A stretch of 64,000 nt of DNA from an uncultured Gemmatimonadota bacterium. Its GTDB lineage: Bacteria; JAAXHH01. The translations under genes were made by a program, and so were the position numbers. The stretch lies in the NCBI GenBank assembly GCA_951812955.1, contig OX638340.1:1888001-1952000 (forward strand), given 5' to 3'. Shown here one piece after another: positions 12,050-38,745 of the stretch (its first letter is position 1; every line of letters begins with the position of its first letter). The notes under the pieces were generated by a model, which worked only from the letters and a program-made list of their open reading frames with translations, was not told where the DNA came from and ran no database searches.

Positions 12050-12065
12050 CCGATTCCTTCCGGGT

Positions 12066-14769: not shown

Positions 14770-15330
14770 ATGCTTCGCATTACCCGTTTATTCAGTGTAC
14801 TGGCGCTTTCCGCGGCTTTCGTGGCCATGGGTAGCGGCGCCGTCGACGCTCAGACGACCATGCCTTCGGGCGAAGACAGTGCGGACATGGGCCGTGGCAT
14901 GGTGGAAGTATCGTTGATGGGCGGCAAGGTGTCCATCGACTACGGCCGTCCGGAAATGAAGGGCCGGGATATGCTGGCCATGGCGCCTGATGGATTCGTC
15001 TGGCGCTTCGGCAGCAACAAATCCACCACCTTCACTACGGAAGCCGATCTTATGTTCGGCGACCAGTCGCTGGCCAAGGGTTCCTACAGCGCGTGGATCA
15101 AGCACGTCGAAGGCGATTCCTGGACGCTCATTTTCAATAGCGAAGTGGGGATCTGGGGCGCACCCGGCGCCAGTCGGGAGAACGACGTGCTGGAAGTACC
15201 GCTGACCTACACCGTGGAAGATGAGATGGTCGAACGGCTCACCGTGAGACTCATGGTCATGGAAGACAAGGGTTTCGTGGGAGTCGGGTGGGGTACCCAC
15301 CGCCTGATTGTCAGTTTCTCGGCCAAGTAG
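14770..15330 (+). CDS. secreted DUF2911-like protein
   Basis: AGGAGG RBS at 14754-14759. Sec signal MLRITRLFSVLALSAAFVAMGSGAVDAQ. WRFGSNKSTT motif recalled from DUF2911. The upstream extension to 14695 lacks an RBS. Confidence 0.45.
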   Translation: MLRITRLFSVLALSAAFVAMGSGAVDAQTTMPSGEDSADMGRGMVEVSLMGGKVSIDYGRPEMKGRDMLAMAPDGFVWRFGSNKSTTFTTEADLMFGDQSLAKGSYSAWIKHVEGDSWTLIFNSEVGIWGAPGASRENDVLEVPLTYTVEDEMVERLTVRLMVMEDKGFVGVGWGTHRLIVSFSAK

Positions 15331-15360: not shown

Positions 15361-15396
15361 AAAGGGACAGGTGCAATTCGCCTGTCCCTTTTCTTT
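15361..15396. terminator. bidirectional rho-independent terminator between convergent genes
   Basis: Perfect 11-bp stem AAAGGGACAGG / CCTGTCCCTTT with a 9-nt loop. T-runs follow on both strands. Confidence 0.6.
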
Positions 15397-17598: not shown

Positions 17599-19656
17599 TC
17601 AGAACAGGATCTGGGACGTCGACTTGGCGATCAAGACCAGGGAGACGGCCGCCATGCCGATCAGCCCAAGGCCGCACCCGTACCCGGCGAGGATCACCGG
17701 CGCGTAGGCGCGCCATCGTTTCTCTCCGTAGCGCCGTCCGAAATAGAACCTTCCCAGCATGGCGCCGATGAACGTGGGCAGCGTGTAGTGAATCCACGCG
17801 CCCGTGCCCAGTCCGGCCACCAGGCCGTAGAAAAGCAGCGGCGGCGCTTTGAGCAGGCTCAGCACCCCGTACAGCGCGAACGTGAACCCCATTCCGGCGC
17901 CGATATACTCCCAGCGGATCAGTTGCCCGATCACGTCTGAGCCGCCCGGCAGGGTAGACTTGATCCAGATCGTCTCCATCGTGGCCTGCAGCGGCCACAT
18001 CTTCTCGACGAAAGGATAGGCCGCGGACGGTATGGGCGCCAGTTTCCAGATCAGGGCGTAGAACACGAAACTGAATACGATAAGCAGTATCAGGCTCAAT
18101 ATATAGAGTTTGACCAGGCTTGGAAATCGCGTTCGGGTGAGTTCCAGCTGCCGGAAAGTCGCCACGACGCCGCTGTGATCGAAGAGGGGAACCGGGGCGA
18201 ACCAGATCGCCACCCCCTTGTAGCCCGACAGGTAGAAGGACCCCTCTCTGGCGTAGGGGAAGGATGACCCGTAGGGAGAGCCCGTCAAACCTATCATGCG
18301 GGCGCCGATGTAGGAGAAAAAAGGCGTCCACAGAAACCCGAACACCACGGAGATCCACACGGGAAACGCCGGTTCAAGGTAGTAGACCAGGGCAATAAAG
18401 CACAGGGTCGAAACCACCCAGAGCGCGATGGGGATGGGCAGCCTGAAATCACCCCTTTCCGGCGGCGGTTTGCGGGGGCCCTGCCCGCCGGACGCCCCAT
18501 CCGGGTCTCTCCTCAACGCGCGGGCGAAGGCGACCAGGCCGATCAGGCCGATGACCAGCGAAGTGCCGATGGAAGAAAAACTCAGCCAGAAGTCGATGGT
18601 GTTGTTGATGGAGGTGGGTATGGTGCTCATCCCCGGCGTCCAACTGTGCAACAGGCCGAAGTGGTAGAGGAGCGGATTGGCAATAAAGGTGATGACGAAG
18701 GAACTGATGAAGGTGCCGACCACGATCCAGAAGGGCAGGACGAATCCCACCAGGAGGGTGGCCATGTCCGTTCCGATGCCGATGGGCGACGCGGGCAGCA
18801 CGTCCCGGAACCGCGGCGTGAAGTCCGCGAAGGGAATGGGGAAGACCTCCACACCCTTGGTCAGCACCACGCCGGAAATGGTGGGGACGACGACATATAA
18901 TATGCCCCAGCCCAGTCCGATCATGGCGCCGACGGTGAACATTCGCCATCGCCAGGTCTCTTCCCCCGCCGACGATTCGGCCAGGGCGGTAGCGCCGGCC
19001 GCCTGCACGGGCGCCAGGGGGAAGGGCAGGCGTTCGGTGTCGGCCGTAATCCGGAAGAGCACGTATCCCAGGGAGAGCGCGTTGACCAGGCCGAGGATGG
19101 ACACGAGGACGGCCAGGAGAATGGGCTCCAGCCACTCCATGGAGAAGAGGGTCCGGGTGATCAACGAATCGGCACCCCGGGGCGGGGAAACCCACTGTGG
19201 AAGAAGCTGGGCCAGGCCGTCCGCCTGGGGAGACTGGATCAGGTACTGGAACCAGATCATCTTGGCGAAGGGCGCGCCGTGCACCGACGACCCGGCCGCC
19301 ATACCGCTGGCGCCCAGTCCCGTGGCCGCAAGCCCGGCGGCAAGCCAGTAGAGGATGATGGCTTCCTGAGGCTTGAGCTTTATAAACAGGCGCTTGCCGA
19401 TCTCGATGAACATGATGATGGTGACCCATTCCGCGGCGCCCGCGAAACTCTTGCCCGTCACCAGTTCCAGGTAGATCGCGCCGGGGAGCATGACCAGCCC
19501 CACGAAGAAGGCGGCCCAGATGATGCGGCTGCTGAACCCGTCCTCGTAGGGCAGGTTGTCCGGAACGATCTGCCACCGGTCATCCTGTTCGGCTCCGGTG
19601 GGAATCGCTTCCCGATCCCGCTGTTCGTGCTGCTCGCGTCTGTTTTCGTCGCTCAT
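17599..19656 (-). CDS. polytopic integral membrane protein, uncharacterised family (paralog 1 of 3)
   Basis: 685 aa, at least 14 predicted TM helices. Shares ERLPFPLAP and aromatic-rich loop motifs with ORFs 25513-27615 and 34391-36388. Confidence 0.7.
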   Translation of the reverse strand: MSDENRREQHEQRDREAIPTGAEQDDRWQIVPDNLPYEDGFSSRIIWAAFFVGLVMLPGAIYLELVTGKSFAGAAEWVTIIMFIEIGKRLFIKLKPQEAIILYWLAAGLAATGLGASGMAAGSSVHGAPFAKMIWFQYLIQSPQADGLAQLLPQWVSPPRGADSLITRTLFSMEWLEPILLAVLVSILGLVNALSLGYVLFRITADTERLPFPLAPVQAAGATALAESSAGEETWRWRMFTVGAMIGLGWGILYVVVPTISGVVLTKGVEVFPIPFADFTPRFRDVLPASPIGIGTDMATLLVGFVLPFWIVVGTFISSFVITFIANPLLYHFGLLHSWTPGMSTIPTSINNTIDFWLSFSSIGTSLVIGLIGLVAFARALRRDPDGASGGQGPRKPPPERGDFRLPIPIALWVVSTLCFIALVYYLEPAFPVWISVVFGFLWTPFFSYIGARMIGLTGSPYGSSFPYAREGSFYLSGYKGVAIWFAPVPLFDHSGVVATFRQLELTRTRFPSLVKLYILSLILLIVFSFVFYALIWKLAPIPSAAYPFVEKMWPLQATMETIWIKSTLPGGSDVIGQLIRWEYIGAGMGFTFALYGVLSLLKAPPLLFYGLVAGLGTGAWIHYTLPTFIGAMLGRFYFGRRYGEKRWRAYAPVILAGYGCGLGLIGMAAVSLVLIAKSTSQILF

Positions 19657-19756
19657 GGATTACACTCGGCCCCGGCCCGGTACCTACCTATTCGCTCTTC
19701 CAATCTTCACTCCCCGATCACTGCTTATAATGCGCCATACGCGCCCATTCTCCCGC

Positions 19757-20914
19757 CTACTCCGCCCTGATATAGTTGCCCGCCTTGTCCCAGTCCGGCC
19801 GCGTCAGGCCGTTCAGGTCCCATACCACCTGTCCGGCGCGCACGGTCAGCAGGCATCGCAGCCGCCGGTCGCCGCGCATGCGGGCGAGGCCCGAATCGAC
19901 GAAGCCGAATTCCCCGTATTCCAGTTCCAGCACGGCGACGTCCGCCTCCGCGCCGATGCTCAGGGTACCCAGTTCCGGCCGCCGTATGGTCCGGGCGGGA
20001 TTGCGCGTGGAGCGCATGACCACGTCCTCCAGGGTCATCCCCATGTTCAGGCATTTCGACATGGTCGTGATCATGCTCGCGTTCGGCATAAGGGCACTGT
20101 ACTTGTGGAAATCCGTGCTGACCGTATCCGGCAGGAAGCCCTGCTCGATGGCCGGCACGGCGATGCGGAACCAGAAGCTGCCGCCGCCGTGGCCCAGATC
20201 GAACAGGATGCCCTTGTCCCGCGCCTCCCGGACGTAGTCGTTCACCCTGCCGCGATGGTCCAGCAAGGGGATGTGCTGTGCGTACAGGTGGGTGTGTATG
20301 TCGCCCGGACTCAGTTTCTTCAGCAGCAGGTCCCGGTAGCTGCGGTTCGGCTTCGGTGCGAAATCGATCATGGCAATGGCGCCGCTCCGCCGGGCCGCCT
20401 CGACGGCGCCGTCGACCGCCTCCCACCCCGGTCCGTTGAAATGGGCGGTCTTGGATCCCACGACGTGTTCCGGATACCTGCTGATCATGTCCGCGCAGGG
20501 CACGGGGTCCATCTCCGACACGTCCTGTTCCACGGCGCCTTCCATACCGGCGCCCACGATGTTGATCAGGGCCAGCACCCGGGTTATGGACTCGGCGATG
20601 ACCGTGTCCTTGAAGTCTTCGAATTTCTTCCACCCGGCGCCCCCTGTATCGAGCACCGTGGTCACGCCGTTGGGGAGCACGTGGGCATCGGGGAACACCC
20701 ATCCCCGGTAGCCGCCATAGGCGTGCATGTGGATGTCGATCAGGCCAGGCGTGACGTAATGGCCGTGGACGCGGGCGACCTGTCTCCCGTGCTCCGCCGG
20801 GATGTCGTGTCCAACCGCCGCAATCAGTCCGTCGTTGACGGCGACGTCCCGGCTATCGTTGATGCCGTTTTGGGGATCGATGACCTGTCCGCCCTTGATT
20901 ATGAGATCGTACAT
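19757..20914 (-). CDS. amidohydrolase-family metallohydrolase (dihydroorotase/deacetylase-like)
   Basis: 385 aa. GLIDIHMHAYGG N-terminal HxH metal motif. TIM-barrel amidohydrolase pattern. Confidence 0.8.
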   Translation of the reverse strand: MYDLIIKGGQVIDPQNGINDSRDVAVNDGLIAAVGHDIPAEHGRQVARVHGHYVTPGLIDIHMHAYGGYRGWVFPDAHVLPNGVTTVLDTGGAGWKKFEDFKDTVIAESITRVLALINIVGAGMEGAVEQDVSEMDPVPCADMISRYPEHVVGSKTAHFNGPGWEAVDGAVEAARRSGAIAMIDFAPKPNRSYRDLLLKKLSPGDIHTHLYAQHIPLLDHRGRVNDYVREARDKGILFDLGHGGGSFWFRIAVPAIEQGFLPDTVSTDFHKYSALMPNASMITTMSKCLNMGMTLEDVVMRSTRNPARTIRRPELGTLSIGAEADVAVLELEYGEFGFVDSGLARMRGDRRLRCLLTVRAGQVVWDLNGLTRPDWDKAGNYIRAE

Positions 20915-20924
20915 CGCTGCTCCT

Positions 20925-23900
20925 TCAGGTCAATTGCGGCGCTTCCGCGGGCGCTCGTTCCTCGACTTTCCGGTACTGGTCCTTGATGGACTCGGAAAGG
21001 GTACGCCACACGAGGAAACGTTTCCGCAGCACGGTGAAGAACCGGCGGTTGATGGTCTGCCACTGCGCAAGGTCCCCGCTGCGCCGGCGGATTGCGATCA
21101 TGATCCGGTACAGGCTTTCACCCGGTACGGGCTCCAGTTCCAGCGCCACGTCCTGGCTGATGGCGAGATCGTAGGGCGCGAGCCATACCGTCGCAGATAC
21201 ACGGTAGCCTTCTATAGGCCGGGCCGGTACCACGTCATGCGCCGTTCCCTCCGCGACGAAATCCTCGGCCGAACTGTCCTCGTGGGTCTGGAAAATGTGT
21301 GCCAGGTATCCCGCCAGCGGATAGGCCTCCGGGATGGTGACGGTAAAGGGAAACTCGAAGCGCCAGTCGTCGCCGTCGGGCGTTGGTGGCGCCCAGCGCC
21401 GGGTCACGTCCTCCACCGTCATGTCCGCGGCCTTTTTGGCCGGGTAGAGGGTGGACAGGAACACGACGACCATGACGACCACCGTCGCGTATACGGTCGA
21501 CAACGAGGAATAGTTCAGCGACAGGCCGCCCAGCAGGTCCCACTGCGACAGGCCCATGGTGATGATCTGGCCGGTGAGGTACCCGAACACAGCGCCTAGG
21601 GTGGCGAATACGGCCGCTTCGGCGATGAACAGCGCGGCAACGTGGTTCGGCGCCAGGCCCACGGCGCTGTATACGCCGATCTCCCGGAACCGTTCGAACA
21701 CGGCGCCCATCATGGTGTTCAGAACCAGGAACGCCGCGATGAGCACCGGGATGATCAGGTTGGCCAGGCCCGAGACCGAAGTGGCGCCAAGGGAGCTGTA
21801 GACCTTCACCTCGTCTTCCGTTCCGACAAACACGGCCAGGAGGACCCGTGACATGAAGGCCTCCACGGAATCGCGGAGTTGATCGCCATCCGCGAACCCC
21901 GTGATCGCCACGGACCGCGTGGATCCGTTCAGGTCGAGGGTCTGGCGGTAGGGCAGGACCAGCACGTTGCGGGATGGCAGGTGTTCGGAGGCCTGGATCG
22001 TTGACATGAATACCTCCACGTCCATTTCGGTCAACGAACGGGTCATGGAAAAACTGGCGGGCATGATGCTTTCGTCGTCCATGTCCCGGTAGGCGTCCAG
22101 GCCATCGGATTCGAGCAGTCCGATCACGGTATAGCGGCCGCCCAGGATCTCCACGACCGCCGTACCTACGTCCTCGGGCTCCACGTCCAGCCTTTCGGCC
22201 AGTTCCGTGGGCAGCAGACACACCGCCCTTTCGTCAGGACCGAACCATCGCCCGCCCGGTACCAGGTAGCGGTCCAGCCCGGAAATGGCCGGTTCGTCGG
22301 CGTGAAGTCCGAGCAGGGACTGTACCGTGGTGGAGGTTCCCCGGCCCGGCGCCCGCAGGTCTATGTAGGGGCTGGTGAGATCCTCGGGCTCGTACCACGA
22401 CCTGGGCACGACCTCGGCCTGCGCTTTGAAGGCGTTTTCCACGTAGGGCAGGAAAGAAGAGGGCAGCGAGTGCCACGACAGGTTGCGCATGAGGACGCCG
22501 TCGTACGGGGGGGCGTTCTCGCGGTCCAGCGTATAGAACTGGATGCCGGTCCTGAAGGAGGTGAAGGAAAGCACGGTAAAGGTCAGCAGGGTCAGCGTCA
22601 CCGCCGTCAGAGCCGTGCGCAGCTTCCGCTTGCGAAGGTTCGAAATCCCGAGCGATATGGCCACCGCCGTGGCGCTCAGCCGGCCGATGTCCGCCTCGTG
22701 AAGGCCGGCCGCCGACCGGGTCAGGTTCTTCATCTCCGTGTCGAACCGCGTGACGATCATGGTAATGATAATCAGCGCCATGGCCAGGATGATGAAGGCG
22801 AGGAAAACCATGTAGGGCGTCAGGCTGAGTTGAAAGGCCGGATGCACGTTCTGCAGCAACAAAAAGACCGCCGCGAAGATCACGCCCACCGCGAGCAGCC
22901 GCTTGCGAATGTCCGGGAACCCGAAGAACAGTCGCTCGAGGAAGAAGCAGAAGGGTACCAGCAGCATGAAGTAGAAAACGATGCCGTCCACCGTGTCGTC
23001 CGCGGCGTACCGTACATCGGGATAGGCGCGGGCCTCGTAGCCCCACGCTTCCCTCGACCGGGCCACGAAGGCATCGTAGCGGCGGTCTTCCAGGGCTTCC
23101 CGCGCCGCCCGAAGCGCCTGCGTGCTTTCTTCATGCAACTCGGCTGCCCGGGCGTTCGTCACGCCGTGGTCCTCCAGTTTCATCAGCCGCGCCCTGTTGA
23201 GCGACCACAGGTCCAGGGCGCTCTGGTAGAAGGGATAGAGAATCGGCCCCCGGTCCGCCGTGAAGCCTTGTCCCTGTGCCAGGGCCATGACGTCGTCGGA
23301 GATGCTTTCCGGCGGATCGTCGAGCCAGGACTCCGGCGTATTGGTCAGCAGGTACTTGACGCCCCGGGGACCCGCGCTCATGAACATCTTGACGCGGTCC
23401 TCGGGCTTTGCGAAGACCACCGCGGCGTTGGTCATCCAGTTGCCGAAGAAACTCTGGTCTTCCACGAAGGCCGCCCCGTACTTTCGCAGTGGGCTGTTGT
23501 CCCGTCCGAGCACGGTCAGGTTGTCGAGAGCGACGAAGACGCCGGGATCGACGATATCGAAGAGGTTGATCTCCTCGCACGGAAAGAGGACCTGTATGGT
23601 ATTGTTCACCTTGGACGAATTCGGCACCGCGAGAGGGAAGGTGGCGTCGCCCTCCTCCCCCAGGTCCGGCGCGTACACGACCCTGCCTGTGTCGTCCAGG
23701 CCATAGCTGCGAACCTCGGTCGGGCCCTTGGAGTCGCGGACCATGGAAAAACGGAAGTAACCCATCGAATCCGCGTGGGTGACCATGAACCCCCGCACGC
23801 CGCTGTGGCTCTGGTAGCCCGGCTCGTAGACGACCAGGGCATCGGATACCGGGGTGTTGGGCTTGAAGAAATCCACGGTGCGGTCGAACTCGAGGACCCG

Positions 23901-25511
23901 GCCCTCGATGTCGCGGCCGTCGTCTTTCAGCCGAATGGACTCGTCCACGTCGAAGGCCTCGGGGTCCGACAGCATGGCCGGCAGCAAGGTGCCGATGGTC
24001 CTGATCTGCCGGACCAGGTTGGGGAAATCGACGTGCTCGACCCGGTCGACAGGCGTATCGATCAGCAGCCTGTTGTCGTTCACCGTGGAGAAGGTCATGC
24101 CATGCAGCCCCGCGAGCGTGACCATCTCATGATCGAAGGCTGGACCCGCGGGCATGTAGCTTTCCTGGGACCTGAGCGAAGGCGTCAGCGTATTGAGGTA
24201 GGCCGTCCGGCTGTCCTCCCGATCGTACACGCCGGCCTTGCGTGCGTAATTCATGTACCGGTCCGCATAGGGTTCGTACAGTATATCCAGATTCGAGGCG
24301 AAGAAGATGTAATCGCCGTAGCTGAACAGCCCGACCTGGTCCATCCGGCTGGTCAGGTCCAGACCCAGGAAAAGCGTGAAGGGGATCCGGTCCGCCTCAG
24401 GTATGCGTTCCAGGAAAAAATCGTCCGTCCGATAGTGGCGGTCCAAGAAGTCGTTTATGCCCTGCATGCCGTGGAAATGGGCGGACGTGGCCAGAAACAG
24501 CACGGTGTATCCGGGAGGATGGGCGCGGAACACGTCCAGCAGTTCCAGCATCGCCGCGATGCCGCCCGCGCTCTCGGCGCCCGGGGCCTGTCCGGGTACG
24601 ACCGACATGGCGTCATAGAATGCCGACAACACGACGACGCGGTCCTTCCACTTTTCTGTCCCGTCGCCGCCGGGAATCGGTTCGTCCCGACCCTGTATCC
24701 ACCCCATGACGTTCCAGGTTTCAGCCCGTTCCCACGACATGCGACCCCGGATCGTCACGTCGATGTTGCCGGGTCCTTCGGACCGGGCGGCCTGCAGCAC
24801 CTTCGCCGCGTGGGGATCGGGAATCCAGAACCGCGGGACGTCTGCGGGCACGTCCAGGATCTTGCGCTGGGCCTGGTTGTTGGTCACCGCGCCCGGACCG
24901 CTGTCGTAGAACAGGATAGCCTGCGCGCCCAGCATCCGCGCGTTGAGATACTGGTCTCGCCCGTCGAAATCGATCAGGACGATGCTTCCCTCGATCTCTT
25001 TCCCGTTGAAGGCCTGGAATTCGCCCCGGCGTCCATAGTGCAGTGGGCCTTTGATGCCGTTGGGAAAGGAATTCAGCCGGACCAGATTGGGCCAGAACTG
25101 GTACACCGGGATTTCGGTTTCAACTGAATCGTGCAGGGTAAGCGTGAACCCGTGGTCGACCGGCGAGGAAACGGTGAAGGTATCGATGGTTACTTCGGAC
25201 AGTCCCCCTGCATGGAACGCGTCGACCACGTACTCCATGGCCGCGCGGTTCCCCGGGTAGCCCACGACGCGCGACGGATGTGCGCTCATCGACCGGACGT
25301 GGGCCTCGACGCCCTCCACGGTCACGATTTCGGAGACTTCTTCCCAGGTCACTGGAGCTTCTTCGAGGGGCCTGGGAGTCACGTCATCGGGAAGCGAGAC
25401 GAACCTCAGGATCACGTGCTCCGTGACCCAGGCCGGACCGGCCACGGCCACGGCGAGGAAGAGCAGGACGCCCACGACAAGAAAGAAAGTTCCGAAAATC
25501 CGAGAATACAC
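20925..25511 (-). CDS. giant membrane protein: N-terminal TM anchor + PA domain + M28-like (apparently non-catalytic) domain + two FtsX/MacB-like permease units
   Basis: 1528 aa. PA-like SIVLIDFDGRDQYLNARMLGAQAILFY. M28-like block with SAFYDA / GAESAGG / SAHFHG where catalytic H, D, EE are substituted. TM cluster at ~880-960. LRKRKLRTALTAVTLTL TM plus periplasmic domain. C-terminal FtsX 4-TM with FERFREIGVYSAVGLAPN. Confidence 0.75.
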   Translation of the reverse strand: MYSRIFGTFFLVVGVLLFLAVAVAGPAWVTEHVILRFVSLPDDVTPRPLEEAPVTWEEVSEIVTVEGVEAHVRSMSAHPSRVVGYPGNRAAMEYVVDAFHAGGLSEVTIDTFTVSSPVDHGFTLTLHDSVETEIPVYQFWPNLVRLNSFPNGIKGPLHYGRRGEFQAFNGKEIEGSIVLIDFDGRDQYLNARMLGAQAILFYDSGPGAVTNNQAQRKILDVPADVPRFWIPDPHAAKVLQAARSEGPGNIDVTIRGRMSWERAETWNVMGWIQGRDEPIPGGDGTEKWKDRVVVLSAFYDAMSVVPGQAPGAESAGGIAAMLELLDVFRAHPPGYTVLFLATSAHFHGMQGINDFLDRHYRTDDFFLERIPEADRIPFTLFLGLDLTSRMDQVGLFSYGDYIFFASNLDILYEPYADRYMNYARKAGVYDREDSRTAYLNTLTPSLRSQESYMPAGPAFDHEMVTLAGLHGMTFSTVNDNRLLIDTPVDRVEHVDFPNLVRQIRTIGTLLPAMLSDPEAFDVDESIRLKDDGRDIEGRVLEFDRTVDFFKPNTPVSDALVVYEPGYQSHSGVRGFMVTHADSMGYFRFSMVRDSKGPTEVRSYGLDDTGRVVYAPDLGEEGDATFPLAVPNSSKVNNTIQVLFPCEEINLFDIVDPGVFVALDNLTVLGRDNSPLRKYGAAFVEDQSFFGNWMTNAAVVFAKPEDRVKMFMSAGPRGVKYLLTNTPESWLDDPPESISDDVMALAQGQGFTADRGPILYPFYQSALDLWSLNRARLMKLEDHGVTNARAAELHEESTQALRAAREALEDRRYDAFVARSREAWGYEARAYPDVRYAADDTVDGIVFYFMLLVPFCFFLERLFFGFPDIRKRLLAVGVIFAAVFLLLQNVHPAFQLSLTPYMVFLAFIILAMALIIITMIVTRFDTEMKNLTRSAAGLHEADIGRLSATAVAISLGISNLRKRKLRTALTAVTLTLLTFTVLSFTSFRTGIQFYTLDRENAPPYDGVLMRNLSWHSLPSSFLPYVENAFKAQAEVVPRSWYEPEDLTSPYIDLRAPGRGTSTTVQSLLGLHADEPAISGLDRYLVPGGRWFGPDERAVCLLPTELAERLDVEPEDVGTAVVEILGGRYTVIGLLESDGLDAYRDMDDESIMPASFSMTRSLTEMDVEVFMSTIQASEHLPSRNVLVLPYRQTLDLNGSTRSVAITGFADGDQLRDSVEAFMSRVLLAVFVGTEDEVKVYSSLGATSVSGLANLIIPVLIAAFLVLNTMMGAVFERFREIGVYSAVGLAPNHVAALFIAEAAVFATLGAVFGYLTGQIITMGLSQWDLLGGLSLNYSSLSTVYATVVVMVVVFLSTLYPAKKAADMTVEDVTRRWAPPTPDGDDWRFEFPFTVTIPEAYPLAGYLAHIFQTHEDSSAEDFVAEGTAHDVVPARPIEGYRVSATVWLAPYDLAISQDVALELEPVPGESLYRIMIAIRRRSGDLAQWQTINRRFFTVLRKRFLVWRTLSESIKDQYRKVEERAPAEAPQLT

Positions 25512-25512
25512 G

Positions 25513-27507: not shown

Positions 27508-27729
27508 GGAAAGGGCCGGATTGTGATACTTGCGGTGACTGAAATACGGTAATGAATCTAGTCTGCGGGTCCAGAATATGTAAAATGGCAGACGGTATAA
27601 GTCAAAGAAAAACAAAGTTCCATGAGGTCCTGAGCCACCATCGGCCAGACCTTTTCGTTGTTGACACGATTCCGGTTTGCGGGGATATTTCCATACCTTG
27701 ATGTACCCGTTTCATACGAGGGATTTACA

Positions 27730-30270
27730 GTGAAGGCCGAAACGAGAGCCGCCATAGACCGCTTGCTGAACAGGTACATCGCCTTCATCTGCCGCCATCC
27801 GGCGAAGATCCTCCTGGGTGCGCTGCTGACCGCATTGCTCTCCGCGCATTTCGCATCCAGGCTTCAGCTTAAAACCGACTTCGTGGAACTGCTCCCGGAA
27901 GGCTACCGGAGCGTCGACGACATTCACCGGATCACGGAGCGCGTCGGCGGCATCGGCAACCTGACCGTCGTCATTGAAACGGAAGACCTGACTTCGGCAC
28001 AGCGGTTCGCCGACGACCTCGCCGGCAGGATCCATTCCGATCTTCCCGAGGGGTATATCCGGTATATCGAGTACCGGGTGGACGAGGAGAAGCGCTTCTA
28101 CGAAGACCACAAATATCTGTATGCGGATCTGGAGGACCTGGAAGAGATCCAGAACCGCCTGAGCCGACAGATCCTGAAGACGAAACTGGAGCAGAACCCC
28201 CTCTTCGTTTCCGAGGAAGACCTCGGGCTGGAAACGGAAGACGAACCGTTTACCTTGAGCGATCTGGAAGAGAAGTACGAAAAGAAAGCGGGGGAGAAGC
28301 TGGACAAGTGGGTCGACGGCTATTTCACGGGGCACGACGAGCAGGGGCAGTTTCTCGTCATGGTCCTGAAACCCTTCGGTTCGTCGACCGGCGTTTCCTT
28401 TTCGCGGGACCTGTGCGAACGGGTACTCGCCATCGTAGAAGGGCTTGACCCCCCGTCATACCATCCATCGCTGAAAGTGGGCCTCACCGGCAAGTACCGC
28501 CTGATCCTGGACCAGTACTCTTCCGTCCAGCGGGAGATCTTCTCGTCCGCCGCCTTCACACTGACCCTGGTGGCCCTGGTCATCTTCCTCTACTTCCGCA
28601 CCATCGTCCCGGTCATCAACATCACGCTGGTCGTGGTCGTCGGCATACTCTGGACGTTCTGCCTGACCTATTTCCGCATTGGCTACCTCAACATGCAGAC
28701 CGCCTTCCTGGGCGCCATCATCATTGGGAACGGCATCAACTACGGCCTGATCCTCATGGCCAGGTACAAGGAAGAAAGGCTGCAGGGAGCGGACGCCCTT
28801 GAAGGCGTGCAGATCGCCTTTCGGAATACGATTACCGCGACGGTCACAAGCGCGGCGTCCACGGGCCTCGCATACGGCACGCTCATGATCACTGATTTTC
28901 GCGGCTTCAATCACTTCGGGTTCATCGGCGGCCTCGGCATGCTGCTGTGTTGGATTTCCACCTTTTCTATCATGCCGGCGCTGCTGATGCTGTGGGACCG
29001 CACCCGTTTCGGGCGGAAGACCTGGACGCGGAAGGTCTCGCGGGGCGGGTCGCTGACCCATCTCGCCAACCTGGTGCAAAAGGCGCCGCAGGCCGTGGTG
29101 GGCACGAGTATCTCCCTGGTCGTGCTGGGTACCGCCCTCCTGGTGTGGTGGCTTCCGAATTCCTTCGAATACGACTTCTCGAAACTGCGAAACGAACCGC
29201 GGGGCGATACTTACGAGCGGATCCTCAACCACCGCGTAAACGCCCTGTTCGGTATATCGCAGTCTCCCGCGGTTATCCTCGCGGACCGCCTGGACCAGGT
29301 CCCGGGCATCCGGCGCGCCGTGCTGGACAAGAAAGAAGCGGAGAAAGAGGGTCCCAAACCGACCATCGACCGGGTGCGAACCATCTTCGATCTGCTGCCG
29401 GAGGACCAGGAAGACAAGATCGACGTGCTCTGGGACATAGATTACATGCTGGACACCAATCCGCCCGACGAACTTGGCATACCGCCCGACCAGCTCGAAA
29501 GGATCAACGCGTTCCGAGAGAACCTGAGCCTGGATGAAATCACCGTTGATGACCTGCCCCAGGCGCTCACGCGTCCCTTCGAGGAGCGGGACGGGACAGT
29601 GGGCAGGCTCGTCTACGTCTACCCGAGGTCGGACGCCGGACTCTGGAACGGCAGGAACCTGATCCGGTTCGCGGAAGTCGTCCGTTCCAACCGCCTGCCA
29701 GACGATGAAGTCATCTATTCCTCCGGTGAGGCCGTGGTATTCGCCGACATGCTGAAGGCCGTGGACCGCGACGGCCCCATTGCCACGGTCGCCTGCTTCG
29801 TGGGCGTTATCGCGCTACTCTTACTGGCATTCCGCAGCGTCCACGCGTCGGTCGTGATCCTGGCTTCCCTGCTGGGCGGCATGCTGGTCATGGGCGGCGT
29901 CATCGCCGTCTTCGACATCAAGGTGAATTTCTTCAACTTCATCGTCATACCCACTACGCTGGGGATCGGCGTGGACTACAGCGTGAACCTGTATCAACGC
30001 TACCGCCTTGACGGACGCGGTTCCATACGTAATATGGTACAGCATACAGGCGCGGCCCTGGTCATGTGTTCGTCCACGACGCTGATCGGTTACACTTCTC
30101 TCATGCTCACGTCCAACCGGGGCCTGCATTCCTTCGGCATCATGGCCAACGTGGGAGAGATCGCCACGCTGGCAACGGCCCTGGTCGCGCTGCCCGCCTA
30201 TCTGCTTATTATGGAAAAGCGGATGAGGAACAAGGCGCCTGGAACGCGGAGTCCGGTTCACGCCGCTTGA
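27730..30270 (+). CDS. MMPL/RND-superfamily exporter (HpnN/MmpL-like, two SSD-type 6-TM bundles)
   Basis: GTG start after GAGGGA RBS (ORF extends to ATG 27658). Two 12-TM halves with large periplasmic loops. Typical MMPL N-terminus. Confidence 0.8.
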   Translation: MKAETRAAIDRLLNRYIAFICRHPAKILLGALLTALLSAHFASRLQLKTDFVELLPEGYRSVDDIHRITERVGGIGNLTVVIETEDLTSAQRFADDLAGRIHSDLPEGYIRYIEYRVDEEKRFYEDHKYLYADLEDLEEIQNRLSRQILKTKLEQNPLFVSEEDLGLETEDEPFTLSDLEEKYEKKAGEKLDKWVDGYFTGHDEQGQFLVMVLKPFGSSTGVSFSRDLCERVLAIVEGLDPPSYHPSLKVGLTGKYRLILDQYSSVQREIFSSAAFTLTLVALVIFLYFRTIVPVINITLVVVVGILWTFCLTYFRIGYLNMQTAFLGAIIIGNGINYGLILMARYKEERLQGADALEGVQIAFRNTITATVTSAASTGLAYGTLMITDFRGFNHFGFIGGLGMLLCWISTFSIMPALLMLWDRTRFGRKTWTRKVSRGGSLTHLANLVQKAPQAVVGTSISLVVLGTALLVWWLPNSFEYDFSKLRNEPRGDTYERILNHRVNALFGISQSPAVILADRLDQVPGIRRAVLDKKEAEKEGPKPTIDRVRTIFDLLPEDQEDKIDVLWDIDYMLDTNPPDELGIPPDQLERINAFRENLSLDEITVDDLPQALTRPFEERDGTVGRLVYVYPRSDAGLWNGRNLIRFAEVVRSNRLPDDEVIYSSGEAVVFADMLKAVDRDGPIATVACFVGVIALLLLAFRSVHASVVILASLLGGMLVMGGVIAVFDIKVNFFNFIVIPTTLGIGVDYSVNLYQRYRLDGRGSIRNMVQHTGAALVMCSSTTLIGYTSLMLTSNRGLHSFGIMANVGEIATLATALVALPAYLLIMEKRMRNKAPGTRSPVHAA

Positions 30271-30323
30271 GACCGACTTCTACAGCCCTGCCGTTCGGAA
30301 ATGAGTCGAACAAGGCCGGTTAC

Positions 30324-31958
30324 ATGAACCTTCATGCAGTGGACTACCGCCAGGTGTTGCCGGATCACCTGCTGCATACCTTTCTCGACGATTTCGAGTC
30401 ACTGCGGCACTTCTATACTTACGATCCCCGCGACCCGGACGTCTGGCCGCGCGCGATCGATGCAGTAAGATCCCGGTCAAATCCCCCACCGAGAAAGGCC
30501 GTATCCCGGACGCTCGAGGCGCAGAACGGCCGCTACGGGGCGGACGAAAGCGTCCTCGAAAACGCCCGTGCCCTTGGCGGCGAGGATACCTTCGTGATCT
30601 CCACGGGTCAGCAGACCGGACTATTCACCGGTCCGCTCTATACGATTTACAAGGCCATCACGGCCGTCAAGCTGGCGAAGCGGGTATCGGAAGAAACGGG
30701 CGTGCGGGCCGTACCGGTTTTCTGGATGGCCTCCGACGACCACGACTACGCCGAGATCAACCATGTCCACGTCTGCCGAGCGGACGGGGACGCCTTGCGC
30801 TTTGAACTGAGTCCCGACGACCCCAATGACCGCCGTTCCGCGAGCGACCGCCTGCTTGGACCCGAAATCGCGGCGCTGCTCGAGCAGTTTGCCGATGCCC
30901 TGCCCGATTCGGAATACAGCTCCTCCGCCATCTGCGCGCTTCGGCAGCACTGTACCGCCGGAACTTCGCTTTCCGAAGCCTTTGCCCGGCTGATGACACT
31001 GCTATTTCAGGGACAGGGCCTGGTTCTCGTAGACCCCACCGACCCGGCACTGAAACCCCTTATGAGCCCCGTGTTCGAACAGGAAATCCGCGATCCGCTC
31101 GCATCCACGCGCTCGGTCCTGTCTACTTCAGAAAAACTGTCCGACGCCGGGTTCGATTCCCAGGTCTCCCGTCTCCCCGAGGCGGTAAACCTGTTTCTCT
31201 ACCAGGACGGACAGCGGAACGCCCTGAGCTACGGGAATGGACGGTTCAGCAACCGGGACGGCAGCCTGTCCTTTACGGAACGGGACCTGCTGCGCGTGCT
31301 CGAGGATTCGCCCGAGCGATTCACCCACAACGTCATCACGCGTCCCCTGGTGCAGGACAGCCTGTTTCCGACGCTGACCTATATCGGCGGTCCGGCGGAA
31401 ATCGCCTACTACGGTCAGCTTGGCGGAGTCTATCGCCAGTTCGGTCTGCCTTTCCCCGTGGTCTATCCCCGCGCTTCCCACACGCTGGTGGGCGCCAGGA
31501 CCGCCCGGATACTGGAGAAGCACGGCCTCACGATCTCCCATTTCGTCCAGGGGATAGAGTCCGTGGTCGACCGGAAACTGCGGGACGACATGCCGGTACA
31601 TATCACCGAGGGACTTCGTGCCGCCCGTGGCGACGCGGAAGCCCATTACCGGAACCTGAAGGGACACGTGACGGCGCTCGACCCCGGGTTGAGCCGGATC
31701 GTGGACGCTTCGGAAAGAAAGACCAACTTCGCCCTGGGCAAGCTGGAGGAAAAGACCCTCCGGGCCATGAAGAGAGCGGACGGAGTCATGCGCGGCCAGA
31801 TCATGCGGGCGGACCGCATGATCTATCCCAACGGTCATCTCCAGGAACGGGTGGCCAACATCTGGCAGTACGTCGCCCTCTACGGAGTCGATGTCATGAA
31901 GACACTCTTCGAAGCCACGGATGAAACGGACTTCAGGCACAGGATAACCCCGCTATGA
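30324..31958 (+). CDS. bshC: bacillithiol biosynthesis cysteine-adding enzyme BshC
   Basis: 544 aa. Block VISTGQQTGLFTGPLYTIYKAITAVKLA...VFWMASDDHDYAEINHVH closely parallels B. subtilis BshC. Stop overlaps bshB start. Confidence 0.8.
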   Translation: MNLHAVDYRQVLPDHLLHTFLDDFESLRHFYTYDPRDPDVWPRAIDAVRSRSNPPPRKAVSRTLEAQNGRYGADESVLENARALGGEDTFVISTGQQTGLFTGPLYTIYKAITAVKLAKRVSEETGVRAVPVFWMASDDHDYAEINHVHVCRADGDALRFELSPDDPNDRRSASDRLLGPEIAALLEQFADALPDSEYSSSAICALRQHCTAGTSLSEAFARLMTLLFQGQGLVLVDPTDPALKPLMSPVFEQEIRDPLASTRSVLSTSEKLSDAGFDSQVSRLPEAVNLFLYQDGQRNALSYGNGRFSNRDGSLSFTERDLLRVLEDSPERFTHNVITRPLVQDSLFPTLTYIGGPAEIAYYGQLGGVYRQFGLPFPVVYPRASHTLVGARTARILEKHGLTISHFVQGIESVVDRKLRDDMPVHITEGLRAARGDAEAHYRNLKGHVTALDPGLSRIVDASERKTNFALGKLEEKTLRAMKRADGVMRGQIMRADRMIYPNGHLQERVANIWQYVALYGVDVMKTLFEATDETDFRHRITPL

Positions 31959-32680
31959 AACTCGACGTCCTGGCCGTATCCCCGCATCCGGATGACGTGG
32001 AGTTGCACTGCGGCGGCCTGATGGTCCGATTCGCCGACCTGGGATACGTCACCGGTATTGTCGATATGAGCCTGGGAGAGAAAGGCACCCGCGGCACGGT
32101 CGACGACCGGAGACTGGAAGCGGCGGCAGCGGCGAAGGTGCTCGGGCTGTCCGAAAGGCTGAATCTCGAACTGCCGGATTCCCGCATCGGGGCCTGCGAG
32201 TCGCACCGCGACGCCCTCGTCGACGCCATACGCCGGTTCCAACCGGACTTGCTTCTCGTTCCCCACGAAGTCGCCCGTCATCCGGATCACGGGGCGACCG
32301 CCCGCCTGGCCAGGGACGCGGCCTTCCTGGCGGGCCTGGAGAAAATCGAAACGGACCACCCGGCCTTCCGGCCCCGGCAACTGGTCTTCTACCTCACGCA
32401 CCACCGCTATCAAGAACCCAGGCCTTCCTTCATCGTCGACATATCCTCCTCCTTCAACCGGAAGATCGAAGCCGTGAAGGCCCACCGGTCGCAGTTCCAT
32501 GACCCGGACTCCGGCGAGCCGGAAACCTACATCAGCCGTCCGGAGTTCCTCGATGAGGTTGAGGCCCAGAGCCGTTACTACGGCACGCTGATCGGCGCGC
32601 GGTACGGGGAGCCCTTCGTAGTGCGGGAATACCTTTCGATCGACGATCCCCTGGCCCACTTCACGGGGCGCGCGGGATAG
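31955..32680 (+). CDS. bshB1: N-acetylglucosaminyl-malate deacetylase BshB (LmbE/PIG-L family)
   Basis: 241 aa. VLAVSPHPDDVELHCGG and HPDH zinc-binding motifs. Confidence 0.8.
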   Translation: MKLDVLAVSPHPDDVELHCGGLMVRFADLGYVTGIVDMSLGEKGTRGTVDDRRLEAAAAAKVLGLSERLNLELPDSRIGACESHRDALVDAIRRFQPDLLLVPHEVARHPDHGATARLARDAAFLAGLEKIETDHPAFRPRQLVFYLTHHRYQEPRPSFIVDISSSFNRKIEAVKAHRSQFHDPDSGEPETYISRPEFLDEVEAQSRYYGTLIGARYGEPFVVREYLSIDDPLAHFTGRAG

Positions 32681-32723
32681 TGGATCGAGCGGGACGGTAC
32701 ATACGGAAGTAGAGGCGAATCCC

Positions 32724-33845
32724 ATGAACATCGGTATCACCTGCTATCCCACCTACGGAGGAAGCGGCGCTATCGCCGCCGAACTGGGACAGGTCCTGGC
32801 GCGAAAGGGACATAAGGTCCATTTCGTGAGCTATTCGATTCCATTCCGCCTGCAGGAATACAGCCAGAACATCTACTTCCACAATGTCGAGGTCATGCCC
32901 TACCCGCTGTTCAAGTATCCGCCCTACACCCTGGCGCTAGCGGCGAAAATGGCCGACGTGGCACTGGAGGCGGAGCTGGACATCCTGCACGTGCACTACG
33001 CCGTTCCCCACGCCACCTGCGCCTTCCTGGCGCGGCACATGCTGCGGGACCGGGACATCAAGGTCATCACGACCCTTCACGGAACCGATATCACCCTCGT
33101 GGGCAGCGACAAGTCCTTCTACCGGATCACCAGATTCAGCATCGAGGAAAGCCAGGGAGTCACGGCCGTCTCCGAGTCCCTCAAGCGAGATACGCAGTCG
33201 CTCTTCGAGATCGACACGGATATCCGCGTAATTCCCAATTTCGTCGATGTCAACCGGTTCCGCCGGGGGGACGGTCACTGCGACATCAGCAATTTCGTCG
33301 ACGATGACGAGAAAGTCATCGTCCACGTCTCGAATTTCCGGCCCGTCAAGCGCATCGGGGATATCATCCGCATGTACGCGGAGGTGCGGAGCAAGGTCAA
33401 GTGCAAGCTGCTGCTGGTGGGGGAGGGACCGGAACGTATACCGATGCAGGAACTGGCCCGCGACCTGGGACTGCAGGACGGCGTGGTTTTTCTCGGTGAG
33501 CAGGAGGGAGTCGACCGGATCCTGTCCTGTTCCGACCTGTACCTGCTTCCCAGCGAACAGGAGAGTTTCGGCCTGTCGGCCCTGGAGGCCATGAGCTGCG
33601 GCGTACCGGTCATCGGCGCCAATGCGGGCGGTCTTCCGGAACTGGTGCGCCACGGGGAGACGGGATTCATCACCGAGGTAGGGGACATCCACCAGATGGC
33701 CCGCCACGCCACGGAACTGCTGGCCGATGACGACTTCAGGCAAACCATCGGGCGGCAGGCGCGGCAGCGGGTACTGGACAACTTCGCGGAAGAGGCCGTC
33801 GTCCCGCAGTATGAGGCATATTACGAGGAGGTATTGCGCGGATAA
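32724..33845 (+). CDS. bshA: N-acetyl-alpha-D-glucosaminyl L-malate synthase BshA (GT4)
   Basis: 373 aa. N-terminus MNIGITCYPTYGGSGAIAAELGQVLARKGHKVHFVSYSIPFRL nearly matches the BshA consensus. GT-B fold EX7E region. Confidence 0.85.
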   Translation: MNIGITCYPTYGGSGAIAAELGQVLARKGHKVHFVSYSIPFRLQEYSQNIYFHNVEVMPYPLFKYPPYTLALAAKMADVALEAELDILHVHYAVPHATCAFLARHMLRDRDIKVITTLHGTDITLVGSDKSFYRITRFSIEESQGVTAVSESLKRDTQSLFEIDTDIRVIPNFVDVNRFRRGDGHCDISNFVDDDEKVIVHVSNFRPVKRIGDIIRMYAEVRSKVKCKLLLVGEGPERIPMQELARDLGLQDGVVFLGEQEGVDRILSCSDLYLLPSEQESFGLSALEAMSCGVPVIGANAGGLPELVRHGETGFITEVGDIHQMARHATELLADDDFRQTIGRQARQRVLDNFAEEAVVPQYEAYYEEVLRG

Positions 33846-33922
33846 CCGCCCGCGGCGGAATCCAGTGGGGCCCTCCGGACCGTTCAGTAGCCAGCGGACC
33901 GTCCAGAATCCGCGGCCGCCCG

Positions 33923-34369
33923 TCAGGAACCCTCCGATTTCTCCGCCAGCGACGCGTAACTCACCCCTTCGCCGCTGTCGTGACTCACCGGCAGGCCCAC
34001 TTCCTCCCATCCCGGATTGACCACTTGTCCGAATGGGGTCATCTCTCCGCTGAACCCGCATCGCATGTTCACGACCGTCTGGTATCCCATCGATTGCAGC
34101 AACTGGGCGGCATGGTCGGACCGCTGGCCGGTCCGGCAGCCCAGCACGAGTTTGGCATCCTCCGGATAGTTCGCTTTAACCACCTGGACGAAATCGGGAT
34201 TGGGCGTCATCTGCCCGGACTGCTCGTCCGCGTGCAGGAGCGGGATGTTCACCGCCGGCGCGGGGTGTCCCTGGTCGAATTCCGGAACGGACCGGACATC
34301 GATGTACACGTAGCCCTCTGATTCGACCAGCCTGGCCGCTTCATCGGGCATGACCTGATCCACGCTCAT
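33923..34369 (-). CDS. rhodanese-domain sulfurtransferase
   Basis: 148 aa. Active-site loop CRTGQRS. Immediately downstream of paralog 3 membrane protein (22-nt gap). Confidence 0.8.
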   Translation of the reverse strand: MSVDQVMPDEAARLVESEGYVYIDVRSVPEFDQGHPAPAVNIPLLHADEQSGQMTPNPDFVQVVKANYPEDAKLVLGCRTGQRSDHAAQLLQSMGYQTVVNMRCGFSGEMTPFGQVVNPGWEEVGLPVSHDSGEGVSYASLAEKSEGS

Positions 34370-34390
34370 CTAAAGCTCCTTTTCTTTTCG

Positions 34391-36388
34391 TTACCATGTT
34401 TCCACGATGTGGCCCGAATTCGGAAACCAGATTACATCGACGCAGTAGGAAAGCGCCACGCCCAGCACGTAACCCACCAACATGCCGATGAAGAAGGGCT
34501 GCGTCTCCCGGTACAATCTCGTGCCCCCCAGTTTAAGGATAATGGCCTTAACGAGCCAGACCAGGAAGATCGACGTGGCGATCATACCGATTCCCCAGGT
34601 CTTGGCAACAGCCCAGCCGATGGGATGCAGCGGCCACCAGTGGAAATTGTGGTGGGCCAGGATCAGCAGCCAGGCTATGAAGGCGCCGACCCCCAGGCCC
34701 AGGTACTCCCCGCCGGTCAACTGGGTCTGGTTATTGATCCATGTCGTCAGCGTGTTGTAACCCGCCTTCGCGTTTCCGAATGCGTCCCTGAACCCATCCG
34801 CGCCCGTGGTTTCGTAACCCAGGAAGACAGTATATACTACGGAAATGATGGCGGCCATGACCAGCGCCGAGACGATGACGGGGAAGATGCCGCGCCGGGC
34901 GCCGCCAATCTCGTCGCCCATCTTGTTTACGTGGGCCATGGCGCACATGCCCAGCGTACGCCAGTTCCGTGAGAATGTCTGCGACAGGGTCAGGATGGTG
35001 AGATCCGCGCGGTGCAGGTTCGCCGATCCGAAGGAGAACACCGTAAAGTCATGGGCGTTATATGGCAGGTCGAGATTAATCAGGCCCGCTTCCGCGACCA
35101 CGCGGGTGACCCCAAGAAAGAGGAGCATGCAGGTGGCCAGCAGCGTGGCCGCGGCGGCGAAGGACATGCCCATGCTGATCAGGAAGAAGAACATGTACGT
35201 GATGCCGAGTACCACGCCGCACATGGCGGTCCTGTAGGAGAAAAACTCCCCCGAATCGTCGATGTCGTTTCCCCTTCCGATGGCCTTACGCACCACGTCG
35301 TAGAGGTGGCGCCGGGCCATCCAGAGCCCGAACAGGGTGAACATGAAAAACCCGCCCAGGTGCTGGGCCGTGACGATCTCGGTCGTCTTCGGAATGCCGA
35401 ATCGACTCATGATGCCGATCTGGATCGTGGCCAGCAGGAAGAACACCCAGATGCTGAACAGGATGTTGAGATTCGTAAAGAATCCGATGCCGATGAAGGC
35501 GAAATTGATCTTGAACTGGATCGGCGGGAAGGATTCGGCCAGGGTGATCGGTATGCGGTAATCCCCGCCCAGTCTGATGGGCACCACAGCGTCCCAGTAC
35601 GAGACGATGTTCCAGAGAATGATGAAGAGGGGGATGGAGAATCCGTACCAGAAAACCCTGGACCGGGCGATCCGGGGCAGTACGGAGCCGCTTTGGTCAT
35701 CTTCGATGAGCAACAGGGGCACGCGGGCCAGCGGAAAGGTCAGACGTTCCCGCTCGATCCACTGTTTACGCAGGATCACCATGAGCGACGCGCTGGCGAA
35801 GAAAAGGGCCAGAAAGAAGGTGCCCCACCAACTCATGGGGATGATCCAGTCCCGCCAGGGAATGACGCCGGTGGAGGGCAGCCCCTCGTAGAACCAGTGC
35901 ACCGCCCGCCGTTCATCCGGGATGATGAGCCAGGTCGGGAGATACTCGAAAAACAATTCGACATACCTGTTCTCGGAGTTGGCATAGTAGTGCGGAATGG
36001 ATGGAACGGCGACCCAGTAGGTCGTAAATGCCCATCCGGGAATAGCCGAGGCCGTAAACACGATGAAAAAGATTATCATCAGTTCAGGAGCTGTGAATAT
36101 TCGAGTCGGTGCGAATCGCTTCAACAGGCCGTTTACGACGAAGACGACCAGCATGAAGGGGAAGAGCGCCGCCATGGGCATGTGGGTAATGGACAGGTAG
36201 GATGAATGAGCCTCGAAGGCGGAATGCACGACCCACCACGCCATGGCCGCGGACAGGAAGAGTCCCAGACCCACGGCACGAAGGGTCATGCCCGAAGCAA
36301 GCCCACCGGTTCTGCCGGGAGGACCTACATCGGGAGGATAGGAATCCGGCCTGCCTGCAGACGGGGGAGTCCGCTCTTTAACACTCAT
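34391..36388 (-). CDS. polytopic integral membrane protein, uncharacterised family (paralog 3 of 3)
   Basis: 665 aa. Colinear with paralog 2 (RKQWIERERLTFPLARVP; YRETQPFFIGMLVG...DVIWFPNSGH). Confidence 0.7.
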   Translation of the reverse strand: MSVKERTPPSAGRPDSYPPDVGPPGRTGGLASGMTLRAVGLGLFLSAAMAWWVVHSAFEAHSSYLSITHMPMAALFPFMLVVFVVNGLLKRFAPTRIFTAPELMIIFFIVFTASAIPGWAFTTYWVAVPSIPHYYANSENRYVELFFEYLPTWLIIPDERRAVHWFYEGLPSTGVIPWRDWIIPMSWWGTFFLALFFASASLMVILRKQWIERERLTFPLARVPLLLIEDDQSGSVLPRIARSRVFWYGFSIPLFIILWNIVSYWDAVVPIRLGGDYRIPITLAESFPPIQFKINFAFIGIGFFTNLNILFSIWVFFLLATIQIGIMSRFGIPKTTEIVTAQHLGGFFMFTLFGLWMARRHLYDVVRKAIGRGNDIDDSGEFFSYRTAMCGVVLGITYMFFFLISMGMSFAAAATLLATCMLLFLGVTRVVAEAGLINLDLPYNAHDFTVFSFGSANLHRADLTILTLSQTFSRNWRTLGMCAMAHVNKMGDEIGGARRGIFPVIVSALVMAAIISVVYTVFLGYETTGADGFRDAFGNAKAGYNTLTTWINNQTQLTGGEYLGLGVGAFIAWLLILAHHNFHWWPLHPIGWAVAKTWGIGMIATSIFLVWLVKAIILKLGGTRLYRETQPFFIGMLVGYVLGVALSYCVDVIWFPNSGHIVETW

Positions 36389-38497: not shown

Positions 38498-38745
38498 GCG
38501 GCATTCCTTATACATTAAAATCCTCTGATCTATTTCTGTGGCATGTTCAAGGTTGCATTCCGTCTTCGTAACGGTGTTGACCTGAACCAGATCCGTTAAG
38601 GTCGAGTATACCTGCCTGGAAGATTCCAAGGTCCTGGAATCACACTACGTGGAACCAGGAAACATTTCTTCCGTCGCCACGGTCCAATGTGTTGGTTATT
38701 TGTCGATAACTTTTCCGATTCTGAATACTGCGATTGGAGGAGGTT

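Follow-up and report, generated by a model that had tools for sequence, protein, structure and literature searches.

Fe(III)-phytosiderophores are transported by barley Yellow Stripe 1 (HvYS1), a member of the OPT family (TC 2.A.67). This protein is built of core plus scaffold domains, combines elevator motion with H+ symport and homodimerises via its scaffold domain (PMC9691689). Prokaryotic OPT members have been reviewed in 2011 (PMC3061005): they form subclusters of 642-665 amino acids (aa), group with the iron-siderophore subdivision in the family tree, had no biochemical characterisation at that time and were in many cases inferred to be peptide carriers from their genome context; glutathione-carrying OPT members are also mentioned. 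The same source reports, after Koh et al. (2002), that NPG and KIPPR motifs are present in 'many' OPT proteins. Another group of described systems consists of the type VII ATP-binding cassette (ABC) transporters MacB, LolCDE and FtsEX, and of the ADOP proteins, which are orphan duplicated FtsX permeases. Genes that can be compared with both groups are found in a stretch of 64,000 nucleotides (nt) from an uncultured Gemmatimonadota bacterium (GenBank assembly GCA_951812955.1, contig OX638340.1, positions 1,888,001 to 1,952,000 of the forward strand). This whole stretch is called the window here, and positions are counted from its first letter. It encodes three large membrane proteins, P1, P2 and P3, and a giant FtsX-type protein. 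The three membrane proteins fall, as divergent relatives, into a known transporter superfamily, two belonging to a Pfam DUF family and one lying at the fringe of OPT, and the three-gene module formed by P1-type, P2-type and giant genes is the most interesting part of the locus.

The relationship with OPT transporters has been found at the level of the fold. AlphaFold2 (AF2) models of P3 and P1 were built from family alignments and compared with the PDB using Foldseek. The P3 model (pLDDT 83, pTM 0.82) matches HvYS1 (7wsr/7wst) with an E value of 2e-9, a probability of 1.00 and TM-scores of 0.63/0.69, and the P1 model matches the same structures with an E value of 6e-8, a probability of 1.00 and TM-scores of 0.59/0.66. 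HvYS1 is the sole PDB match of both models, the next Foldseek matches having E >0.02 and TM-scores of ~0.1, and both models have the Yellow Stripe (YS) core plus scaffold fold seen in HvYS1. The identity is only 11-14%, and searches of PDB sequences with P1, P3 and both family profiles gave nothing useful. Crude hydropathy indicates 11-14 transmembrane peaks and the AF2 models contain ~20 helices including hairpins, compared with 16-17 segments, in proteins of about 640-690 aa, expected for prokaryotic OPT members. A (K/R)Lx(Y/F)P motif is common to P1, P2, P3 and HvYS1 (KLVYP, residues 195-199), at positions that may be equivalent. The NPG and KIPPR motifs are absent from all three proteins, and their lengths (664-685 aa) are compatible with those of the prokaryotic OPT subclusters in PMC3061005. 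A GT-C or O-antigen-polymerase (Wzy-like) fold was also considered and rejected, as no such fold is among the PDB matches of the P1 and P3 models. A first-pass annotation of the window had held the proteins to be unassignable to a transporter or GT-C family; this has been overtaken by the fold-level match to an OPT transporter, from a family that the annotation had itself listed as a potential refutation, and remains correct in that no function, and none that explains the genomic context, comes with the match.

The same annotation had correctly located the three open reading frames (ORFs), all of which are on the minus strand (Table 1), and its description of large polytopic membrane proteins without a characterised function can be retained. 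It had also described them as three paralogs with common sequence blocks, which applies to two of the three. P2 and P3 are 33% identical from end to end (640 aa, E 1e-114, BLASTP), and both contain RxQW[IV]ExE[KR]LxFP, WF[VY][DE]G[IL]P, YR[KE][GT]QPFF and D[YV]IWFPxxGH. In P1, the only trace of these motifs is ERLPFP, and its BLASTP alignments with P2 (E 0.004 over 150 aa) and P3 (E 0.13) cover a short stretch around it. P1 nevertheless appears to be remotely homologous to both, at the superfamily level only, because the P1-family and DUF6785-family alignments match in hhalign with a probability of 91.9% (E 6.8e-7, 544 columns, from the N- to the C-terminus), whereas control comparisons, in which alignments were reversed or an unrelated membrane protein was used, do not exceed 1.2%. 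The paralogy between P2 and P3 is ancient, and P1 is outside their family. Local triplication, as previously proposed, does not agree with these data: other genomes carry orthologs of P2 and of P3 that are 86-92% identical to them, compared with 33% between the two, and the proximity of P2 and P3 is not conserved. In four relatives of P3 (90-92% identity) that share the bsh/MMPL neighbourhood, P2 is absent beside the MMPL gene. Since these relatives lack the adjoining P2 operon, the clustering of the three genes within 19 kb is lineage-specific, and recent triplication is not its origin.

P2 and P3 are not members of an unrecognised family, as had been thought. In a check with Pfam hidden Markov models (HMMs), both are full-length members of DUF6785+DUF6784, and P1 belongs to another family. 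P2 matches PF20581 (E 3.5e-110, 369 bits) and PF20580 (E 4.4e-22, 78.6 bits), and P3 matches them with 375 and 81 bits (E about 1e-110 and 1e-22), the gathering cut-offs being 25 bits for PF20581 and 26.4 bits for PF20580. P1 has no match to either at E ≤1. No function or fold is assigned to the DUF6785+DUF6784 family in the sources searched, and no mention of DUF6785, DUF6784, PF20581 or PF20580 was found in the literature searched. Searches of P1, P2 and P3 against NCBIfam, and a tblastn search against plasmids, returned no match, and P3 itself was absent from the contig collection searched. With a DUF6785 profile built from 28 members, 7,210 cluster representatives (50% identity level) were found at E ≤1e-3 in a database of 1.84 billion proteins, 2,504 of them at E ≤1e-30, and at least 585 stretches of GTDB species genomes encode relatives. 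The best 80 of these stretches are nearly all from metagenome-assembled genomes (MAGs) of Latescibacterota and Gemmatimonadota, with a few from Planctomycetota, Zixibacteria and Desulfobacterales, and several copies per genome are often present in the Latescibacterota and Gemmatimonadota MAGs. The isolate names of several of the MAGs suggest sponge or coral metagenomes. The Yellow Stripe fold provides a mechanistic template, consisting of core plus scaffold, elevator motion and H+ coupling, both for the thousands of sequence clusters of this DUF family and for the P1 family, known as 'peptide transporter'.

This name is the NCBI label for members of the P1 family; P1 itself has no match in a Pfam search. 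At E ≤1e-3, 1,342 P1 homologs were counted among the candidates scored, with listed identities of 52-96%. The family is strongly conserved, with a mean column identity of 66% in an alignment of 25 sequences that are 53-87% identical to P1. P1, P2 and P3 do not match the Pfam OPT profile PF03169 at E ≤1, and most P1-family members are below its cut-off of 25.8 bits, which is exceeded by two P1 relatives only (P0115 with 28.7 bits and the homolog in locus L169 with 32 bits). P1 belongs to a family of its own, which is better conserved and borders on Pfam OPT.

The giant protein, a conserved partner of P1-type and P2-type proteins, is encoded between P2 and the amidohydrolase gene. It consists of an N-terminal anchor (residues 5-23) and an ectodomain of ~800 aa with a PA domain (168-213) and an M28-like domain (287-502), followed by transmembrane segments (840-986), MacB_PCD (966-1159), FtsX (1255-1364) and a tail of ~160 aa. 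The Pfam matches to FtsX (E 1.5e-13) and MacB_PCD (E 3e-6) are accompanied by a weak match to Peptidase_M28 (E 4e-7), and PDB sequence matches (YtrF, MacB and LolC) are confined to the FtsX region, residues 1250-1369. A MacB periplasmic core and an FtsX transmembrane domain link the giant protein to the type VII ABC transporters and the ADOP permeases. It differs from them in being a single chain, in its N-terminal PA/M28-like ectodomain and in always having OPT-fold gene neighbours; a fixed genomic partnership with such a protein is not mentioned in the consulted passages of the OPT papers. It also differs from type VII ABC systems in that no cognate ABC ATPase is encoded near its gene. Walker A and ABC signature motifs, searched as regular expressions, were found in none of 36 full-length giant homologs, neither in their own chain nor in neighbours within five genes, a range beyond which an ATPase may be encoded. 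Canonical M28 peptidases have metal-ligand and catalytic motifs HxD, GAxD and EE. In 34 giant homologs, the corresponding positions, aligned by eye, read [FYH]YD, GAE and HF, and because the canonical ligand motifs appear to be replaced, the M28-like domain may be non-catalytic. The homologs are named 'FtsX-like permease family protein' or 'M28 family peptidase' in the sources, and are present in the same phyla as the module, with several paralogs in some genomes.

The pairing of these genes has been followed in 170 fetched loci, in which genes were called with a home-made codon-usage score and labelled with local HMMs, so that starts and gaps are approximate. Among 42 P1-type loci with enough flanking DNA, a giant gene is found within three same-strand genes in 31, a DUF6785 gene in 21, both in 18 and neither in eight. 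Two of these eight, L115 and L127, were inspected and have both partner genes five to seven genes away. The gene order is permuted. When all P1 loci are counted, including those on short contigs, giant-P1 is seen 23 times, giant-DUF-P1 ten times and DUF-giant-amidohydrolase-P1 four times, in addition to DUF-P1-giant, P1-DUF-giant and other orders, with a median gap of 12.5 nt among the module genes. L089 (76% identity to P1) has the same order as the window, L088 (56% identity) has DUF6785-P1-giant, and the Planctomycetes locus L085 (DG_23) has giant-P1-DUF6785-DUF6785. The P1-type, P2-type and giant genes form a conserved, previously undescribed gene module that spans phyla. Since the DUF6785 genes with the greatest similarity to P2 are those linked to the module, P2 represents a module-specific DUF6785 subgroup. 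In a variant of the module, L098, an Asparaginase_2 (isoaspartyl peptidase/asparaginase) gene (4412-5308) is located between the DUF6785 and giant genes, whereas in the lineage of the window an amidohydrolase gene is located between the giant and P1 genes.

Outside the module, a universal partner of DUF6785 genes was sought in 41 groups, dereplicated at 75% identity, and none was found. The neighbours within four genes include PhyH in nine groups, a second DUF6785 gene in seven, a sulfatase in five and a 2-hydroxyacid dehydrogenase in five, and Pfam matches of 125 DUF6785 neighbours are equally scattered, including sigma-54 regulators and glycosyltransferases. Such scattered contexts are expected for a diversified family of solute transporters. 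In the MAG loci L005-L007 (DUF6785 genes with 38-50% identity to P3; for example L007, 2145-9995), two DUF6785 genes are interspersed with two sulfatase genes and with PhyH dioxygenase genes, in surroundings that contain a formamidase/acetamidase, a pyridoxal-phosphate enzyme and a gamma-glutamyltranspeptidase. These neighbours hint that other DUF6785 members take up sulfated or N-rich organics.

In the window, a single nucleotide separates the P2 stop from the GTG start of the giant gene, and the gap between the amidohydrolase and P1 is 100 nt. P1 and P2 thus flank the amidohydrolase and giant genes, as the first-pass annotation had noted, and its placing of the membrane proteins in operons with hydrolase or sulfurtransferase genes is borne out. 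The P2 ORF reaches an upstream TTG at 27615, and the lengths of homologs favour the ATG at 27507. The amidohydrolase scores just under the 371-bit cut-off of NF006689 (E 6.9e-110, 367 bits) and is retained only in relatives at 76-98% identity. The 2-hydroxyacid dehydrogenase gene starts 28 nt downstream of P1 and keeps this position in L089-L095, and the synteny of the Ldh_2-family dehydrogenase is kept in L089 and L090. No genes for metallophore biosynthesis, TonB-dependent receptors or metal regulators were found in the operons of the window, and scans of the whole stretch with Rfam and for tRNAs gave no match.

Table 1. Features of the window, grouped by neighbourhood.
Feature	Position	Strand	Length	Assignment or basis
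P1	17599-19656	-	685 aa	separate OPT/YS-fold family; putative remote DUF6785 homolog
P2	25513-27507	-	664 aa from ATG	DUF6785+DUF6784; OPT/YS-fold superfamily
P3	34391-36388	-	665 aa	DUF6785+DUF6784; OPT/YS fold
Giant PA/M28-like/MacB_PCD/FtsX protein	20925-25511	-	1528 aa	Pfam, hydropathy
Amidohydrolase/deacetylase metallohydrolase	19757-20914	-	385 aa	Pfam Amidohydro_1, Amidohydro_3; NF006689
D-isomer 2-hydroxyacid dehydrogenase	16536-17570	-		Pfam 2-Hacid_dh_C, E 1e-54
Ldh_2-family dehydrogenase	15395-16453	-		Pfam PF02615, E 1.5e-105
DUF2911 gene	14695-15330	+		
RraA-like gene, between P2-P1 operon and hut cluster	13774-14448	-		
HutU (urocanase), HutH (histidine ammonia-lyase), HutI-like (imidazolonepropionase-like), further amidohydrolase	7816-13715	-		
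Rhodanese, single domain	33923-34369	-	148 aa	Pfam, E 8e-16
MMPL/RND-type transporter, then BshC-domain, PIG-L and GT4 genes, between P2 and rhodanese-P3 pair	27658-33845	+		Pfam
Three consecutive genes of one BLAST cluster, the first with a DUF4097 'toastrack' domain	38734-42506	+	526, 271, 428 aa	
Tandem aldehyde:ferredoxin oxidoreductase paralogs	50155-52044, 52071-54143	-	629, 690 aa	AFOR_N + AFOR_C

P3 is found in a different unit. The P3 stop and the ATG of the rhodanese gene are separated by 21 nt, with AAGGAG ahead of the ATG, in line with the translational closeness reported earlier. An active-site loop of the CRxGxR[ST] type marks active sulfurtransferases, and the loop of this rhodanese, CRTGQRS, is of that type; no obvious N-terminal hydrophobic signal sequence is seen. 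The pairing of P3-type and rhodanese genes is retained down to 66% identity (L013). At ~50% identity, P3-like genes have an unrelated 129 aa ORF in the position of the rhodanese; it was considered as a diverged rhodanese and rejected, as no alignment was obtained at E ≤100. P3 and the genes for an epimerase and a PhyH dioxygenase are divergently transcribed. The Pfam matches of the genes between P2 and the rhodanese suggest a complete bshC-bshB-bshA cluster for bacillithiol biosynthesis, and its synteny with MMPL and P3 is limited to relatives of ≥81% identity.

It is considered fairly probable that P1, P2 and P3 are transporters of the OPT/Yellow-Stripe superfamily that act as proton-coupled importers, with P1 and P2 in the giant-FtsX module and P3 in a separate, rhodanese-linked unit. 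By analogy with HvYS1, each would be located in the inner membrane and would import a small organic solute as a proton-coupled, elevator-type secondary transporter. P1 and P2, together with the giant protein, would serve at the envelope to capture and import peptides or amino-acid conjugates, which would then be degraded in the cytoplasm. The choice of these solutes is based on the amidohydrolase, the dehydrogenases and the hut genes downstream, and on the peptide carriers proposed among prokaryotic OPTs in PMC3061005. P3 would form a unit of its own, transcribed together with a cytoplasmic rhodanese. Its solute is probably different from that of P1 and P2 and, as the rhodanese partner hints, is possibly sulfur-containing; a low-molecular-weight thiol is a guess prompted by the nearby bacillithiol genes, with which synteny exists only at ≥81% identity.

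Several observations weigh against the importer reading. The transport role of the P1 and DUF6785 families is a prediction, and the P1 model is of moderate confidence. None of 28 DUF6785 proteins matches PF03169 even at E ≤10, and the HvYS1 sequence is matched by neither family profile; because of this, the link of P2 and P3 to OPT runs through the fold and through a chain that passes via P1. The proposed peptide substrate is local and weakly founded, because DUF6785 neighbours are heterogeneous across the 41 groups. For P1 and P2 in particular, it is weakened because the M28-like domain looks degenerate and because distant module loci lack catabolic enzymes such as those mentioned and instead have unknown, type IX secretion system-tagged and TPR proteins as neighbours. 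The idea that a peptidase feeds the transporter is doubtful, since the giant's M28-like domain appears to lack canonical metal and catalytic residues. Furthermore, simple independent importers do not account for the persistence of two OPT-fold proteins with an ATPase-less FtsX protein.

This last point leads to the possibility, regarded as unlikely, that P1, P2 and the giant protein are subunits of a single membrane machine instead of separate importers. In one conceivable variant, P1 and P2 would form a heterodimer via their scaffold domains, comparable to the HvYS1 homodimer (PMC9691689), and would couple proton-driven movement to a mechanotransmission protein of the MacB/FtsX type with its M28-like ectodomain; the machine could then serve in envelope remodelling, substrate extraction or export. 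The tight co-occurrence in permuted order across phyla, the unusual conservation of the P1 family, the distant module loci without catabolic genes, and the missing ATPase motifs in the giant chains and their five-gene surroundings are all consistent with such a machine. However, the argument is one of gene linkage, and co-transcription is equally expected for a single uptake pathway. In addition, the eight P1 loci without either partner within three genes, the many loci with giant and P1 genes and no DUF6785 gene, and the several giant paralogs in some genomes speak against this reading. In its strong form, this becomes an undescribed three-component envelope machine, in which the proton-driven elevator motion of an OPT-fold heterodimer replaces the ABC ATPase as the motor; it would occur in Latescibacterota, Gemmatimonadota, Zixibacteria and Planctomycetota and have a giant ectodomain with a degenerate PA/M28 part. 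This form is judged to be quite unlikely. The conserved association with this orphan FtsX-type protein raises a well-defined, testable question, namely what powers such ATPase-less FtsX/MacB-like proteins or how they are used.

Import of metal chelates (nicotianamine- or siderophore-like) by P1, P2 and P3, as in the Yellow-Stripe branch, would agree with the only structural match being an Fe(III)-phytosiderophore transporter and with the iron-siderophore subdivision in which prokaryotic OPTs are placed (PMC3061005). HvYS1 is, however, the sole OPT structure, so that the match is uninformative on the substrate, PMC3061005 also proposes peptides as the substrates of many prokaryotic members, and the operons of the window lack the metallophore, TonB-receptor and metal-regulator genes noted above. 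In some P1 loci, an ExbB-ExbD-ExbD arrangement directly upstream fits chelate uptake; no TonB-dependent receptor is found beside it, and the cluster is treated here as lineage synteny. Metal chelates are considered very unlikely to be the substrates. The importer reading is also preferred to the original proposal of a novel membrane module unrelated to transporters (or resembling GT-C or O-antigen polymerases), locally triplicated and diversified. P1 indeed has no functional Pfam or NCBIfam family, P2 and P3 have DUF matches only, and no PDB sequence match was obtained with P1, P3 or the family profiles, but the proposal is contradicted by the fold searches and is now hardly credible.

The ExbB/ExbD arrangement is seen in a subset of the metagenomic loci, L115 (2434-9882), L127, L100 and L107, in which genes for a TPR protein, ExbB, ExbD, ExbD, a 259 aa ORF and a peptidyl-prolyl isomerase-domain protein are directly upstream of the P1-type gene, and genes with an FGE-sulfatase domain are downstream. 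Further from the module, the window contains tandem aldehyde:ferredoxin oxidoreductase genes and a run of three related genes on the plus strand (Table 1); paralog runs of two to four genes are present at the place of the latter in L009, L010, L016 and L034. Several isolate names suggest sponge or coral metagenomes, and a symbiont lineage of this kind is the probable source of the window; the closest relatives of its genes (L009, L011 and L091, with 92-98% identity) are labelled inconsistently as Latescibacterota or Gemmatimonadetes MAGs.

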